A program made the position numbers and the translations under genes. From the NCBI GenBank assembly GCA_043718025.1, contig JAYSWN010000172.1, forward strand, positions 29,630-93,629: a stretch of 64,000 bases of DNA, read 5' to 3'. Within the stretch, counting starts at the first letter, position 1. Every line of letters starts with the position of its first letter. Shown here in pieces: positions 6,504 to 13,804 of the stretch. The notes under the pieces are model-generated. The model was not told where the DNA came from, did not search any database, and saw nothing but the letters and a program-made list of their open reading frames with translations. This stretch comes from Pseudomonadota bacterium (GTDB lineage: Bacteria; Bdellovibrionota; FAC87; UBA2466).

Positions 6504-8132
<1,629 letters not shown>

Positions 8133-8152: not shown

Positions 8153-8440
8153 TTAACCGACGATTCCGAGGATCTCATCCTCGCGCATCATCAAATACTC
8201 ATCACCATCCACCTTCACCTCAGTGCCGGAATACTTTCCGAAGAGGATTTTGTCCCCTTTTTTCACTTCGAGAGGCACGACTTTTCCATCGTCCAGAATC
8301 TTGCCGCTACCTACGGCAACAACTTCACCCTCTTGTGGTTTTTCCTTAGCGGTATCTGGAATAATGATTCCGCCCTTGGTGGTTTCTTCTTCATTCAAGC
8401 GACGCACGATTACTCGATCGCGCAATGGCTTTATCTTCAT
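8153..8440 (-). CDS. groS: Co-chaperonin GroES (Hsp10)
   Basis: [39 protein letters not shown] 8440 is preceded by AGGAG at 7 nt. The GTG at 8446 in the ORF track is less likely. Confidence 0.9.
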
Positions 8441-8773
8441 ATTCACACTCCTAATTAAGTTACGTTAGACTAGCGCCGCCCCACCCCCCGAAGGACTGGT
8501 GAGCTATTCTCTTTAAGCTCTTCAGGGTGAAGACAACGTTATAGTTAAAACATTGAACGTTGTTTTAGGGATTCCCGCGCCAAGGTCAAGTAAATTTATT
8601 TATTTCCAAGCCATATCAAGGGTTTAAGGATTTCATGGCCAGCCCCAGTTTTGACTTCTTTTTCAGCGTTCCCAAATAAGAAAGCGTCGGAAGGCGCCTC
8701 CGACAAAAATCTTTGCGCAGCACGGCAATTAGGCCGTTCAGCGCCATTTAAATTTAGAGAGAAGGAGCCTTTT

Positions 8774-9265
8774 ATGATGCTTTTTAAAAACGACCGAAAC
8801 TGGGACCCCTTTAAAGAGTGGGAGCAATTTTTTACCAATACGGCTGCCCGTCAAGCGCGGCAGAGCCCGGCCTATGAGTCGCCACGCTACGCAGTTCAGG
8901 AGAAGGAAGATGGCTTTATTCTTAGCCTAGATGTGCCAGGAGTGCGTAAGGAAGACATTCAGATTGAGAGCAAAGGGCGCACCCTTTCGGTCACGGCCAA
9001 GCGTAAAGCGGCCCACACCGAGGGCGAAGCCTCCGAAGAGTCGACGTTTTCCTACCACGCCAGCTTCGAACTACCTGAAGCGGTGCAGATGGACGGGGCC
9101 GAGGCGTCTTACCAAGACGGAGTGCTGTGCCTGGCCCTGCCAAAAGTGAAAGAGGCCACTACGCGGGCCATTAAGGTAACGGACGGTCGTGGCGAGTTTT
9201 TCGGAAAACTCGTTCAAGGCTTTAAGAAAAAGATCCCAGAAGTAAAAACGGAAGCCAAAGCCTAA
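8774..9265 (+). CDS. Small heat shock protein, Hsp20/alpha-crystallin family
   Basis: Alpha-crystallin core YAVQEKEDGFILSLDVPGV..IESKGRTLSVTA..GVLCLALPK. ATG 8774 is preceded by GAGAAGGAG. Divergent from groES. Confidence 0.85.
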   Translation: MMLFKNDRNWDPFKEWEQFFTNTAARQARQSPAYESPRYAVQEKEDGFILSLDVPGVRKEDIQIESKGRTLSVTAKRKAAHTEGEASEESTFSYHASFELPEAVQMDGAEASYQDGVLCLALPKVKEATTRAIKVTDGRGEFFGKLVQGFKKKIPEVKTEAKA

Positions 9266-9298
9266 TCCCCACTCGGCCTGTACGCTTTTCCCCCAATA

Positions 9299-9328
9299 GG
9301 GGGCCCGGAAACGGGCCCCCTTTTTTTT
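9299..9328 (+). terminator. Rho-independent terminator after the Hsp20 gene
   Basis: GGGGGCCCG-GAAA-CGGGCCCCC followed by TTTTTTTT. Confidence 0.65.
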
Positions 9329-9445
9329 AGCCGGCGTCACCCCATTTGCCCTTTTTTAGGAAAACTAGCCGGAATCGTTGAAATCTCTGCCTTCCCCGTT
9401 TATCTTTTTCCCCAATTTCGAATTGTTTCTAGAGTAGGAGCCGCC

Positions 9446-10609
9446 GTGTTCAGGTCTTCATTTACTGTCTCAATAAAAGCTCAGGGCCTTACCCTTGGCG
9501 TTTGCCGGTCACGCGTGCCTGGCACCTTAGAAGTGTTTGTCGATGGTCCGGTGAAAAGGGCTGAACTGCTGCGCGTCACCGTAGAGGGAACTAACGCTAC
9601 GGGGCAGCAGGCCTTTCCCCCGTTGAGCTACACTTTTACCCCCTCAATCGATGCCCCTGCCGCCGCTGCTCTCGAACTTTCATTGCCGTTCAAAGACTTT
9701 TTAGTTGGCAAAGAGAAGTCGACCCACGGGCTGCTAAGAATTCAGTTTTATGTAGATGGGGCCCAGCCGGTTTCGGCGCTGCTGCCGGTAGAAAGCTTTT
9801 TGCGTCTTTACCGCGCTAAAGGAAAAGCGGCAGCGGACTCATTGAGTTGGCATGGCTTGGCGTTGATCGACCACAAAGAAGTGGCCGCATTATCGCCGCT
9901 CAGTTTAAAAGCGCGCTCGGATCAAAGACGGGAAGAGATTGAGGCAGCTCGCCTTAAGGCCGTGGAAGAGGCCAAGGCAAAAGAGGCGGCTCGTTTGGCC
10001 GCCGCCAAAGCGGCGGAAGAGGCGCGCGCCAAGAGTGCGGTCGGAGCTTCGGCCGCCACTTCGGCCCCCGTCGACAAATCAAAACCCACCTTGGCCGGCG
10101 CTAAAACGCTGCTGATCTACGGATCTTCGACCGGCAACACCACGGATGTGGCGGAAATGATCAAAGCAGAATTGGGCGATAGCGTTGATGCGGTAAAAAA
10201 CATTACCGACTTGAGCCTTTTAGATTTTGGCATTCCGGAAAGATTCATTCTCGGGGTGCCCACCTGGCACATTGGCGAGATGCAAGATGACTGGGCCTCG
10301 ATATTGCCTGACTTTGATAAATCGACGATAAGCTTGGCGGGAAAAAAACTTGCGGTCTTTGGCTTGGGCGATGGCAAGGGCTACCCTGACTCGTACGTGG
10401 ACGCGATGCAGGAGTTGGCCGAAAAATTCGAGAAAAAAGGGGCCAAGCTGGTGGGGTTGTGGCCAACCGAAGGTTATGAATTCAAAAAGTCAAAAGCCAT
10501 TCGCGGCAATAAATTCGTAGGCCTGGTGATCGATGTAGAGAACCAAGACGAACTGAGCGAACGCCGAGTTAAAGAGTGGTGCGCGCAGCTTAAGAACGAA
10601 CTATTCTAA
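9446..10609 (+). CDS. Fusion protein: unknown N-terminal domain (about 190 aa), Ala/Lys/Glu-rich linker, C-terminal long-chain flavodoxin
   Basis: C-terminus LLIYGSSTGNTTDVAEMI..LAVFGLGDGKGYPDSYVDA..FVGLVIDVENQ is a flavodoxin (FldA-like). GTG start is preceded by AGGAG. The N-terminal domain is not recognised. Confidence 0.7.
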   Translation: MFRSSFTVSIKAQGLTLGVCRSRVPGTLEVFVDGPVKRAELLRVTVEGTNATGQQAFPPLSYTFTPSIDAPAAAALELSLPFKDFLVGKEKSTHGLLRIQFYVDGAQPVSALLPVESFLRLYRAKGKAAADSLSWHGLALIDHKEVAALSPLSLKARSDQRREEIEAARLKAVEEAKAKEAARLAAAKAAEEARAKSAVGASAATSAPVDKSKPTLAGAKTLLIYGSSTGNTTDVAEMIKAELGDSVDAVKNITDLSLLDFGIPERFILGVPTWHIGEMQDDWASILPDFDKSTISLAGKKLAVFGLGDGKGYPDSYVDAMQELAEKFEKKGAKLVGLWPTEGYEFKKSKAIRGNKFVGLVIDVENQDELSERRVKEWCAQLKNELF

Positions 10610-10912
10610 AGCCGTCACGAACTCCACCCAGTTCGGAGTGGCGTTTTCGATCTTAAAACCAAAATTATTTTCTTCATCGGCCCACACGGGCTGCACGGTC
10701 ATCTGCGCGCTGACCGTCTCACTTAGCTCCACACTCACAAACATACGACTGCCAAAAAAGATTCTTTCGGGAAGATTTGCCTTAAACCCGCCCTGAGAAA
10801 TTTCGGAGGTCGAGATTGGGATTTTGATGTCGCTGGTGGGCATCATCAAATAGCCAGTGCGTTCACATTTAATGCGCGGATGACGTCGGCGATTAAGAGC
10901 GGTGTTGTCCAT
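10601..10912 (-). CDS. PilZ domain protein (c-di-GMP binding)
   Basis: RRRHPR (RxxxR) and EISQGG (D/NxSxGG) motifs. 103 aa. Confidence 0.6.
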   Translation of the reverse strand: MDNTALNRRRHPRIKCERTGYLMMPTSDIKIPISTSEISQGGFKANLPERIFFGSRMFVSVELSETVSAQMTVQPVWADEENNFGFKIENATPNWVEFVTALE

Positions 10913-11051: not shown

Positions 11052-12263
11052 ATGCCGATGACCAGCTTAGAGGCCATTCAACAGGCCCAGACCCGCATTG
11101 CCCCCTACATCGTCCAGACGCCACTCATTCTTTCCGAAGCCCTATCGCGCCACTGCCATAAAGAAGTCCTGATGAAGTGTGAAACTTTTCAGCGTACCGG
11201 TTCTTTTAAAATGCGCGGGGCAGCGCACTGCATCCTGCAAAATCTGGCCCAGGCCAAAAAGAATGGTGTGGTTGCGGCCTCGGCGGGAAACCACGCGCAA
11301 GCGGTTGCCTTGATGTGCAAGATAACCGGAATTCAAGCCACGATCGTGATGCCGGTAACAACGCCTCCGATTAAGATTCAACACACGGCGCGCTGGGGGG
11401 CCAAGATCGAGCTGGCCGGGGTTTTTTTAGATGAGGCATTTACCCACGCCTTAGCGCTATCACAAAAGCGCGGCTGCGTTTTCGTGCACGCCTTTAATGA
11501 TGCCGATATCGTGGCGGGGCAAGGCACCGTTGCTTTAGAGATGTGTGCCGATGCCAAATTCAAAGGTACCGAAGCCTTTTTGATTCCAATTGGGGGCGGT
11601 GGCTTAGCGGTGGGAATGGCCACCGCGTTAAAGGCGCTGTCACCCGGGACCAAGATTTATGGCGTCGCGCCTAAAAATGCCGGCGCCATTTTAGAAAGCT
11701 TTCGCACCGGAAAAGTGATGCCGCTTGACGTGACTTTTACGTTGGCCGACGGCACCGCAAAAAAACGGCCCGATGAAGTGATGCTGGCCGAGCTCAGAAG
11801 CTTACTGACCGACGTAATTTTGATGAGCGAAGAGTCCATCGCGCACGGCATTTCACTCATCGCCGAAGAATCTAAAATGGTGGTTGAAGGCTCGGGCGCG
11901 CTGGGCGTGGCCGCTCTGCTCGAAGACAAGATTCCAGAAAAAAAGATTGGCATCATCCTTTCGGGTGGAAACATTGACCTTCCCGCTTTTTCTTCGGTGT
12001 TGCATCGTGGCTTGGTTGAGCAAGGGCGATTGATTCGCGTTGCCATTACCATCAGCGACCGGCCCGGAGGGTTGGCGGCAGTAACCCAAATTCTCGCCGA
12101 TAAGAAAGCAAACATCTTGCAAGTCTTTCACCAGCGCTCCACCTTAAAGGCCGCCATCGGCGAAACCGAAATCGATGTCGACATGGAAACCAAAGGGCCC
12201 GAGCACACCCTGGAAATTTTGCAGGCGCTGAAAGAGCGAGGGTTTCAAGTTAGCCGTGTTTAA
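11052..12263 (+). CDS. ilvA: Threonine dehydratase (threonine ammonia-lyase), PLP-dependent with C-terminal ACT-like domain
   Basis: SFKMRGA lysine motif and SAGNHAQAVA Gly-rich PLP loop. About 400 aa with a regulatory C-terminus. Confidence 0.8.
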   Translation: MPMTSLEAIQQAQTRIAPYIVQTPLILSEALSRHCHKEVLMKCETFQRTGSFKMRGAAHCILQNLAQAKKNGVVAASAGNHAQAVALMCKITGIQATIVMPVTTPPIKIQHTARWGAKIELAGVFLDEAFTHALALSQKRGCVFVHAFNDADIVAGQGTVALEMCADAKFKGTEAFLIPIGGGGLAVGMATALKALSPGTKIYGVAPKNAGAILESFRTGKVMPLDVTFTLADGTAKKRPDEVMLAELRSLLTDVILMSEESIAHGISLIAEESKMVVEGSGALGVAALLEDKIPEKKIGIILSGGNIDLPAFSSVLHRGLVEQGRLIRVAITISDRPGGLAAVTQILADKKANILQVFHQRSTLKAAIGETEIDVDMETKGPEHTLEILQALKERGFQVSRV

Positions 12264-13008
12264 ACGTTTGGTAATTGCGACCGCTATTTTTGCTTCGGGC
12301 CCAATACGCGCCGACGATTCGCTATCGGCCAGCGCCAACTACGTTCGGCAGAAAAATGGCCCCGATCGCGTTGAACTATCGGCGATTCGCAATTGGCAAG
12401 GGCCCGAGAACTTCCGGCTGGAGGCAAAACTGCGCTTGGGCACCAACGAAAAACAGCTGCAAACTTTTGATTGGGCCGGCGAAGCCACTTACCATCTCAT
12501 CGAGTACGTGCAACCCGCTCTGCGTTTTTACAACGTTAGCCACCTCGCTAACGGCACTCACCACACCGGAATCTATCCGGCGATAAATTTCTATCTGCCG
12601 GTTTTTTCGCAGTTTAGACTGCACGCGAACTTCGGCTGGTTTTTGCGCTGGGTTTCGCTTTCGACAGCCGTACCGCTGCCCTACTGGGGGGGCACGTCTT
12701 ACTTTGAACACGACATTGGATTTGCCCTGGGCGGAGAACTCAAGTTTCTACCGGCCTGGCGTTTTTCGGCCACGGCCACCACTTACGATGACTTTGACGT
12801 GCACAACTTCAATCACCCCATTCTCAAACTGACCGTTGCTCATGATCTGGCTGACCGCAATGAGGTAGCCCTCTTCTTTCGCAATGATTTTTTATTGGGC
12901 TTTGGCCGAACGCAGTCGTGGCGGATAGGTGCCACCTACGTCTGGAAATTTAGTAGTCCAGCCGCTTTCGCTCAAAACTTAACTGGTCGCCGTCTACCGA
13001 AACCTTGA
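12256..13008 (+). CDS. Hypothetical secreted protein, possibly an outer-membrane beta-barrel
   Basis: Signal peptide MFKRLVIATAIFASGPIRA. Alternating hydrophobic pattern and terminal ..YVWKF. GTG start overlaps the ilvA stop. Confidence 0.45.
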   Translation: MFKRLVIATAIFASGPIRADDSLSASANYVRQKNGPDRVELSAIRNWQGPENFRLEAKLRLGTNEKQLQTFDWAGEATYHLIEYVQPALRFYNVSHLANGTHHTGIYPAINFYLPVFSQFRLHANFGWFLRWVSLSTAVPLPYWGGTSYFEHDIGFALGGELKFLPAWRFSATATTYDDFDVHNFNHPILKLTVAHDLADRNEVALFFRNDFLLGFGRTQSWRIGATYVWKFSSPAAFAQNLTGRRLPKP

Positions 13009-13804
13009 CGTAAAAGTTTTCTAACACGGGCTCCATACGTCGACCGCCGCCACCACCGGCCACGAGATAGCTCACCCCATCAATATTCTTCTGCACATAG
13101 CTGTGATAGTGCGCCGCCAACCAGGCCGATACATTCCGAGTGGTCGCCAATTTCATCAGGGCCTGAGCCTCTTGTGCGTCAGAGAAACGCAGATAGCTGC
13201 GCACTCCGGCAACGATGGGGGAGTAATGGCTGAGTAGAAAAATATTTGTCTCTGGGCGCCCACCCAATTGCTGATTCAGCCATTCGGTCTGCTCGCTGCC
13301 TAAAGTGGCGTCGGCGGTATCAAGCGCAACAAACCGCGAGTTGCCTACGGTGAAGGCGTAGTGGCTCGGCCCGACTTTGGCTTTAAAGAACTCCCAACCG
13401 TCGGCAAAGATATCGTGGTTACCGAGAATCGAAAAAACCTTTCCGGCCAAGGGCGACGCAAGAATTGCCGCGTGGTAAGCATTCACCTGCTCAGCGGTGC
13501 CCTGATCGGCCAAATCGCCAAGCATGATCGCAAAGGCATCGCCGTCAGCCGCCGACAGCGCCAGCATCTTTTCGAGCCAGGTCGTGGCCCCTAGGTGCAG
13601 ATCGCCTACGGTGGAAAAGCTGAACTTGTTGGGATTGGTAAGCACAGGCGGAGTGACGACCAGCGCGAGCTTCTCGCTTTCAGCAAAACGGGTTTCGGGA
13701 AGAGTTCGGCTCACGCAACCTGGCCACAAGAGCGCGCCCAAAAGCGCTGACGAAATAATAGACACCCGAAAAAATAAAATCATGGTTACCCCTTGAAACT
13801 GCAC
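12950..13804 (-). CDS. Calcineurin-like metallophosphoesterase, secreted or lipoprotein
   Basis: GDLHLG..LGDLADQG..GNHD..HYH motifs. N-terminal signal peptide. The start may be at the internal MILFF (13783). Confidence 0.7.
   Translation of the reverse strand: MQFQGVTMILFFRVSIISSALLGALLWPGCVSRTLPETRFAESEKLALVVTPPVLTNPNKFSFSTVGDLHLGATTWLEKMLALSAADGDAFAIMLGDLADQGTAEQVNAYHAAILASPLAGKVFSILGNHDIFADGWEFFKAKVGPSHYAFTVGNSRFVALDTADATLGSEQTEWLNQQLGGRPETNIFLLSHYSPIVAGVRSYLRFSDAQEAQALMKLATTRNVSAWLAAHYHSYVQKNIDGVSYLVAGGGGGRRMEPVLENFYVKVSVDGDQLSFERKRLDY

Follow-up and report, generated by a model that had tools for sequence, protein, structure and literature searches.

Long-chain flavodoxin joined through a predicted helical linker to a predicted β-sandwich domain in Bdellovibrionota-type genomes

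Fusion gene and the three parts of its product

The window analyzed here is a stretch of 64,000 nucleotides (nt) from a bacterium of the Bdellovibrionota lineage (assembly GCA_043718025.1, contig JAYSWN010000172.1, positions 29,630 to 93,629 of the forward strand). One open reading frame (ORF) in the window, at 9446..10609 on the plus strand with the stop codon included, encodes a protein of 387 amino acids (aa). It consists of an N-terminal domain, a long predicted helix followed by a flexible hinge, and a C-terminal long-chain flavodoxin. The original prediction, made from the sequence, had described the product as a long-chain flavodoxin fused through a helical or low-complexity linker to a novel N-terminal domain.

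The ORF was unbroken, and about 20 full-length orthologues shared its continuous frame. The start codon was GTG, where close orthologues have ATG at the aligned position (M-F-R-S...). A Shine-Dalgarno sequence, AGGAG, was read at 9437..9441 (+), with a gap of 4 nt to the GTG. Upstream, an intrinsic-terminator-like hairpin at 9298..9321 (+), with 10 pairs, 9 of them G-C, followed by T7, ends the gene of a small heat-shock protein (sHSP). A sigma-70-like promoter candidate, TTGAAA-17 nt-TATCTT, was located at 9378..9406 (+), about 40 nt 5' of the start codon; it is a consensus match, and three such sites were observed near the gene against 1.5 expected by chance. Because the hairpin closes the sHSP gene and a sigma-70-like site precedes the ORF, the fusion gene looks like its own transcription unit. 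Reading of the window and orthologue sequences showed that neither a Met nor a Shine-Dalgarno sequence is conserved ahead of residue 221, where a free flavodoxin could start, and the in-frame TTG at Leu214 has no Shine-Dalgarno sequence upstream. The protein is presumably cytoplasmic, since no N-terminal hydrophobic signal or membrane segment was evident in its 387 residues.

Residues 221–387 (10106..10606, +) were assigned to a long-chain (FldA-type) flavodoxin domain by model score and by alignment to solved flavodoxins. With TIGR01752 (flav_long), residues 220–386 reached 189.4 bits, above the cutoff of 146.75, and with NF006739, the model of the FldA subfamily, they reached 183.1 bits, above the cutoff of 175. 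The short-chain model TIGR01753 covered residues 222–337 only, with 52 bits (cutoff 123), and the cysJ model TIGR01931 gave 16.4 bits (cutoff 668). The Pfam match to Flavodoxin_1 spanned residues 223–378; it was the only Pfam domain of the protein, and no domain resembling ferredoxin-NADP+ reductase (FNR) was found. The C-terminal 167 residues aligned nearly end to end with solved cyanobacterial flavodoxins of 169–186 aa (E-value 2e-45). For the standalone FldA/IsiB flavodoxins, including 1flv and 1czl (Anabaena/Synechococcus) and Escherichia coli FldA (1ag9), near full-length alignments to this part had E-values of 2e-45 to 6e-36.

The site for flavin mononucleotide (FMN) was then compared with that of the solved proteins. 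The FMN phosphate loop, S227-S-T-G-N-T232, lies within Y-G-S-S-T-G-N-T after the first β-strand and matches the loop of the solved flavodoxins. In an alignment of nine orthologues, G226, T229, N231, T232, W274, and Y313 were invariant. W274 and Y313 lie in P-T-W-H-I-G-E and G-K-G-Y-P-D, which correspond in 8hgq and 6kif to P-T-W-N-V-G-E and Q-V-G-Y-S-D. They sit at the positions of the aromatic pair that flanks the isoalloxazine ring (Trp57 and Tyr94 in Anabaena numbering). The long-chain insertion of about 20 residues, which splits the last β-strand, was present; the segment from W339 to N366 aligned without gaps to 169-aa long-chain structures. Within the fusion family, 89 of the 167 flavodoxin positions were conserved at 85% or more. 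With both family models above cutoff and the FMN site intact, this part of the original prediction held, and the C-terminal part can be identified from its sequence as a genuine member of the long-chain family of flavodoxins with intact FMN-binding residues. The whole protein does not fit the single-domain definition of that family. Standalone long-chain flavodoxins are single domains of 165–185 aa, whereas the fusion protein has 387 aa, about 220 of them extra N-terminal residues that form the β-sandwich, helix, and hinge, and it shares at most 51% identity with those found.

The structure of the full-length protein was predicted by using AlphaFold2, with a mean predicted local distance difference test (pLDDT) score of 80.8 and a predicted template modeling (pTM) score of 0.47. 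The model showed a β-rich part at residues 7–139 and a flavodoxin fold at residues 221–386. Residues 151–200 (9896..10045, +), rich in Ala, Glu, Lys, and Arg, formed a single uninterrupted helix, with block pLDDT values of 92, 92, 91, 83, and then 56; the value stayed above 90 to about residue 190. Residues 201–220 (10046..10105, +), rich in Ala, Ser, Pro, Gly, and Thr, were assigned as a flexible hinge from their low pLDDT. Disorder was predicted for residues ~197–220, with pLDDT below 50 for residues 197–210.

The 61 linker residues from 160 to 220 include 21 Ala, 8 Glu, 8 Lys, and 5 Arg. In every family member measured, first nine orthologues and then 17, the linker was 58–69 aa long and had a net charge of +3 to +7; about 40 residues rich in Ala, Glu, Lys, and Arg were followed by about 20 in which Pro, Gly, Ala, and Ser are abundant. 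The sequence itself was poorly conserved, while length, composition, and net positive charge were kept; selection acts on the physical properties of the linker and not on its sequence. A conserved L154-K155-A156-x-S158-D motif opens the helix. A second, semi-conserved motif, V-D-(K/R)-(S/T)-x-P-(T/S)-(L/I)-x-x-G-(K/R), occupies residues 208–219 of the window protein (nt ~10067–10102) and recurs in orthologues of many clades, where the first flavodoxin strand directly follows it. At the end of the hinge at 10046..10105 it takes the form V-D-K-S-K-P-T-L-x-G-x-K. The remainder of the hinge was unconserved, and the motif may stop the hinge or serve as a contact site.

EAAAK repeats are rigid helical spacers used in protein engineering, and A(EAAAK)nA is an engineered rigid linker; domain II of TolA is a natural Ala/Glu/Lys-rich spacer helix. 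The fusion linker shares their composition and their long, uninterrupted, predicted helix, and the stretch AKAAAEKAAADKAAAAAAKAAAAK of the linker at locus L008 is one example that resembles EAAAK repeats. It differs from these spacers as a segment of 40–50 residues inside a presumably cytoplasmic redox protein. A weak match to the TolA model TIGR02794 (E-value 0.035) derived from composition, and weak matches to DUF6465, Herpes_UL25, and TolA were all discarded as composition-driven. Because the large hydrophobic residues in the helix of the window protein are sparse and not heptad-spaced (only I165, L170, V173, and L184), a monomeric stalk is favored over a coiled coil. The linker had been expected to be Ala/Lys/Glu-rich and either helical or of low complexity, and the predicted helix with its low-complexity tail bore this out.

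The N-terminal domain, residues 1–150 (9446..9895, +), belongs to a sequence family absent from the libraries searched. Residues 1–~160 had no match in Pfam (2025 copy) or NCBIfam release 20, a profile search of the PDB sequences found no match to the domain, and no consistent weak match to Pfam was seen at E ≤ 10 across nine orthologous N-terminal domains. A tblastn search against plasmids also gave no match. In a collection of 5.8 billion proteins, single-sequence and profile searches with the domain returned one fragment only (P0001). With the domain alone, phmmer against 1.84 billion representatives gave only fusion members or their fragments among the credible matches. Four phmmer matches, P0002, P0003, P0006, and P0009, were rejected as spurious, being long repetitive proteins aligned in many short stretches. 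These proteins (tetratricopeptide-repeat-like, adhesin-like, and low-complexity eukaryotic repeat) outranked true family members, and E-values of this kind did not indicate homology. The empty Pfam, NCBIfam, and PDB sequence searches agree with the original prediction that the domain matches no described family. The predicted size of 190 aa did not stand: the globular part has about 150 aa, and the remainder is the start of the helix at residues 151–200.

Modeled alone, the N-terminal domain had a pLDDT of 88.1 and a pTM of 0.86. Nine strands were predicted within residues 7–139, with helices at residues 80–87, 115–123, and 144–147. Foldseek with this model gave no match at E ≤ 1e-3, and template modeling (TM) scores did not exceed 0.45. 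The domain is predicted to be an immunoglobulin (Ig)/arrestin-like β-sandwich, an assignment to a fold class only and not to a specific family. The Ig-like or arrestin-like β-sandwiches with which it was compared were the TRAPα lumenal domain, Spo0M, Vps26, ApaG/PDIP38, RhoGDI, and superoxide reductase.

In an alignment of 20 sequences, the conserved positions of the domain were G18, G26, E40, R43, S61, T63, F64, P66, E77, F85, L86, G88, G95, R123, K125, G126, and D142. No conserved His or Cys was found in this alignment, which ruled out a metal or redox center. Position 27 is His in 13 of the 20 members (Thr in the window protein), and position 20 is Cys in nine. A superoxide reductase or neelaredoxin-like identity was rejected: the His4-Cys iron ligands are not conserved, and the Foldseek matches were weak (E-values of at least 8.5e-3, TM-scores of at most 0.38).

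Family, selection, and genomic neighborhoods

The three-part layout was common to about 25 independent assemblies, and every named one was a metagenome-assembled genome (MAG) of Bdellovibrionota or Pseudobdellovibrionaceae. Eight full-length copies of 44–69% identity were found when a single genome for each GTDB species was scanned; all were in MAGs labeled Bdellovibrionota, Pseudobdellovibrionaceae, or "delta proteobacterium". A metagenome scan by full-length alignment gave ten further full-length copies and several truncated at contig edges, and phmmer against the 1.84 billion representatives added two full-length fusions, P0004 and P0010, and three short entries. The fusion of the window was 64% identical, over the best segment, to that of L003, from a MAG labeled Bdellovibrionota; this similarity, together with that of GroEL given below, places the window with the named Bdellovibrionota MAGs. 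The check on phylogenetic distribution thus returned a conserved family and not a one-off fusion, which has been found so far only in Bdellovibrionota-type genomes and in metagenomes.

A convincing standalone copy of the N-terminal domain was not found in the GTDB-species, metagenome, or phmmer scans. Three candidates were rejected. P0007 corresponds to the first 140 residues of the full-length protein of L017. P0012, a 169-aa protein annotated as flavodoxin, lies at a contig edge, and its open frame runs upstream into the linker. P0008 (L036, 158–738) has an in-frame TAA within the linker, after which the same frame goes on linker-like. The sequence after this stop, KCRREEEAAKRREAE, reaches the end of the contig, which has 738 nt and comes from a single sample. 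Sequencing error, pseudogene formation, and a natural split of the gene are all conceivable for this copy. One apparent short copy, P0005, was not located. Relatives of the flavodoxin part above ~60% identity were all fusions, and the standalone flavodoxins found were at most 51% identical. The N-terminal domains are only 23–31% identical between clades at the lowest, yet they were always attached.

Selection was estimated for each part from the ratio of nonsynonymous to synonymous substitution rates (ω). For L018 and L019, the least saturated pair (synonymous divergence, dS, of 0.7–1.2), ω was 0.13 for the N-terminal domain, 0.04 for the linker, and 0.02 for the flavodoxin; in other pairs with finite dS, ω of the N-terminal domain was about 0.1. 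These values indicated purifying selection on all three parts. The N-terminal domain evolves several times faster than the flavodoxin, with a mean top-residue frequency of 0.49 against 0.78. Full-text literature searches found no description of a tethered or N-terminally extended long-chain flavodoxin, or of this N-terminal domain. What is new is the domain architecture with its new domain family; the flavodoxin carrier is already known.

The gene neighborhoods were compared at about 21 loci. They were conserved only within subclades and consisted mostly of housekeeping genes. The order of the window type is groEL/groES, sometimes an sHSP gene, the fusion, and a pyridoxal phosphate-dependent threonine dehydratase with an ACT domain (L001–L003 and L015). 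At L014 and L016–L022, the order is SMC, an unknown gene, the fusion, and a Gfo/Idh/MocA oxidoreductase. The fusion stands beside an AsmA-like protein at L006, L007, and L023, beside an MscS channel at L004 and L013, and beside divergent sdhCAB at L011 and L012. In a clade from freshwater metagenomes (L014 and L017–L021; for example L019, 6145–7128), the NAD(P)-dependent Gfo/Idh/MocA oxidoreductase gene starts within a few nt of the stop codon of the fusion, with SMC upstream, and is probably co-transcribed with it.

At L005 (4126–7506) and L008 (7183–10551), eutB-eutC-eutA lies directly downstream on the same strand after a gap of 19–47 nt (eutB, 602 bits). Microcompartment shell genes were not visible in the flanks of these two loci. 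In Salmonella, the cob(II)alamin destined for adenosylation is reduced by flavodoxin, and the flavodoxin of the subclade formed by these two loci may have a B12-related use.

In the window, a PilZ gene of 103 aa with a single domain (PF07238, 30.4 bits) lies at 10601–10912 on the minus strand, convergent with the fusion and overlapping its 3' end by 9 nt. Its protein carries an RxxxR-like N-terminal R-R-R-H-P-R and has E-I-S-Q-G-G where (D/N)xSxxG is usual. The convergent position noted in the original prediction was thus correct; a link to PilZ or cyclic di-GMP (c-di-GMP) was not supported, as a PilZ gene beside the fusion was absent from L001–L003 and from all other loci compared. In L001, L002, and L003, the threonine dehydratase gene lies ~45–65 nt 3' of the fusion with no PilZ gene between, and the PilZ gene of the window looks like an insertion between the two. 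Since the dehydratase gene directly follows the fusion in the closest relatives, the PilZ adjacency is coincidental. Across the loci, neighborhoods differed between subclades, and no partner gene was conserved beside the fusion; therefore, it has no dedicated operon partner.

Proposed role and alternative explanations

Flavodoxins are textbook free-diffusing, promiscuous electron carriers. The layout found here suggests a general-purpose flavodoxin on a leash, and this is the explanation that we tentatively prefer. The β-sandwich would serve for docking and attach the protein to a partner enzyme, to some scaffold or surface, or to other copies of the same protein. The stiff helix would act as a spacer of about 7 nm (50 residues × 0.15 nm) and the flexible tail as a hinge. 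The acidic flavodoxin head could then swing, over a range of about 10 nm and in place of free diffusion, between an electron donor and at least one acceptor, so that the protein would serve as the low-potential FMN electron carrier of the cell while remaining tethered. In each subclade, the neighbors of the gene are unrelated housekeeping genes; the flavodoxin therefore probably works for metabolism in general and not for a single pathway encoded in an operon. The dedicated delivery of electrons to a bound partner that the original prediction suggested is plausible, and the neighborhoods fit an anchored general carrier at least as well.

Several points weigh against this explanation. Docking and the swinging arm are deduced from anatomy and by analogy. 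The arrangement of the domains relative to each other is uncertain in the full-length model, as its low pTM indicates, and the AlphaFold2 models were built on a shallow alignment of seven sequences. Beyond the family, the N-terminal domain was searched by single-sequence phmmer, by which very remote homologues in other architectures were possibly missed.

In analogy to known systems, the fusion protein would work most like tethered redox modules, without their defining domains. Diflavin reductases (CysJ of the sulfite reductase flavoprotein, SiRFP, and cytochrome P450 reductase) likewise hold a flavodoxin-fold FMN domain on a linker and move it between donor and acceptor. Unlike them, the fusion has no FNR-like domain for flavin adenine dinucleotide (FAD) and nicotinamide adenine dinucleotide phosphate (NADPH), its flavodoxin is FldA-type and not CysJ-type, and it has a predicted β-sandwich as its putative anchor and a long, presumably rigid helix as its linker. 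In cyanobacteria, FNR carries an N-terminal, non-catalytic, CpcD-like docking domain on a linker, which parks the enzyme on the phycobilisome. The enzyme, the docking domain, and the organisms differ from those of the fusion, in which no conserved internal start for a free short isoform was seen.

A more specific form of the proposal is possible, though rather doubtful. The β-sandwich might be dedicated to docking on a specific large redox complex or scaffold of Bdellovibrionota. In that case, nature would have made a "swinging-arm" flavodoxin, comparable with the lipoyl or acyl-carrier arms that carry substrates, except that the load would be electrons, borne by an entire FldA-type flavodoxin. 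Such a mode of flavodoxin use would be previously undescribed, and the β-sandwich would represent a new protein-interaction domain family.

In this lineage, an FldA-type flavodoxin is permanently attached, by a spacer of conserved length, to a domain that resembles a docking module, which suggests that electron delivery is spatially organized in these cells. If a docking target were found, a new interaction domain family would be defined, the wiring of low-potential electron flow in Bdellovibrio-like bacteria would be shown, and the engineering of tethered redox carriers would gain a natural model in the combination of β-sandwich anchor, EAAAK-like stalk, and hinge. If the N-terminal domain binds nothing, the fusion would be a lineage-specific decoration of an ordinary protein.

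Self-assembly was considered as an alternative and appears unlikely. In this case, the N-terminal β-sandwich, possibly together with the helix as a coiled coil, would oligomerize and display flavodoxin heads on stalks, comparable with CysJ. In two accounts, the N-terminus of the sulfite reductase flavoprotein is described as building an octamer with tethered FMN domains, in the same order of assembly region, linker, and Fld domain as in the fusion (PMC11195156; bioRxiv 10.64898/2026.04.08.717228). Ala-rich helices can pair, and the lack of a conserved heterologous partner gene nearby is also consistent with self-assembly. However, regularly spaced large hydrophobic residues are few in the helix (the four named above), which is more of the EAAAK-type, monomeric kind.

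Intramolecular regulation or shielding was judged distinctly unlikely. The mostly basic N-terminal domain and linker would fold onto the acidic flavodoxin, gating the FMN edge or tuning its potential or oxygen reactivity, and would thus form a lid and not an anchor. The charges are complementary in most members: the isoelectric point (pI) is 8–9.8 for the N-terminal domain and ~5 for the flavodoxin, with net charges of +3 to +7 for the linker and −5 to −7 for the flavodoxin. In five of the 17 members measured, however, the N-terminal domain is near-neutral or slightly acidic (pI 5.9–6.7). A conserved, presumably rigid helix of ~50 residues would be an odd connector for a lid, and AlphaFold2 gave no confident packing between the domains (pTM of 0.47 for the full-length protein against 0.86 for the N-terminal domain alone).

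Surface anchoring is also improbable. The basic N-terminal domain and linker would keep the flavodoxin near membrane redox enzymes, bound to the cytoplasmic membrane on its anionic inner face or to another polyanion. Most members have a basic N-terminal half, and membrane proteins are neighbors in some clades (MscS, AsmA, and sdhCAB). This charge is not kept in all members, though, and neither an amphipathic nor a hydrophobic anchor was present. The neighbors vary by clade and are probably incidental, and the fold matches are generic.

A carrier dedicated to one pathway, delivering electrons to a PilZ/c-di-GMP process or to cobalamin reduction for ethanolamine ammonia-lyase, for example, is very improbable. 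The convergent PilZ gene of the window and the eutB, eutC, and eutA genes closely downstream in L005 and L008 are in its favor. The absence of PilZ from every other locus, including the syntenic L001–L003, largely refutes the PilZ version, and the eutBCA adjacency occurs at two of ~21 loci in one subclade, while the neighbors in other clades are threonine dehydratase, Gfo/Idh/MocA oxidoreductase with SMC, AsmA, MscS, or sdh.

An artifact, either a frameshift or assembly chimera of two genes or a non-functional N-terminal passenger, is hardly credible despite the one short metagenome contig with a stop codon in the linker (L036, P0008): about 20 full-length orthologues from independent assemblies keep the same continuous frame, which excludes two genes split by a frameshift, the N-terminal domain and linker are under purifying selection, the N-terminal fold is confidently predicted, and the frame at L036 resumes linker-like after the stop, so that this copy would be an error or a pseudogene.

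Other genes in the window

A chaperone cluster lies upstream of the fusion gene. It comprises groEL (6504–8132, −), groES (8153–8446, −), and a divergent HSP20-family ORF (8651–9265, +), whose true start is probably an internal Met-Met at residue 42. The GroEL of the window is 94% identical to that of L001. The CIRCE operator, TTAGCACTC-N9-GAGTGCTAA, was not found in the whole window with up to three mismatches; therefore, heat-shock control there is not of the HrcA/CIRCE type.

Downstream, an ORF of 250 aa was found at 12256–13008 (+). It has a signal-peptide-like N-terminus and no Pfam match, and it overlaps the 3' end of a convergent metallophosphoesterase gene (12950–13804, −). An ORF with 42% identity occupies the same position in L001, and the product may be an uncharacterized envelope protein.

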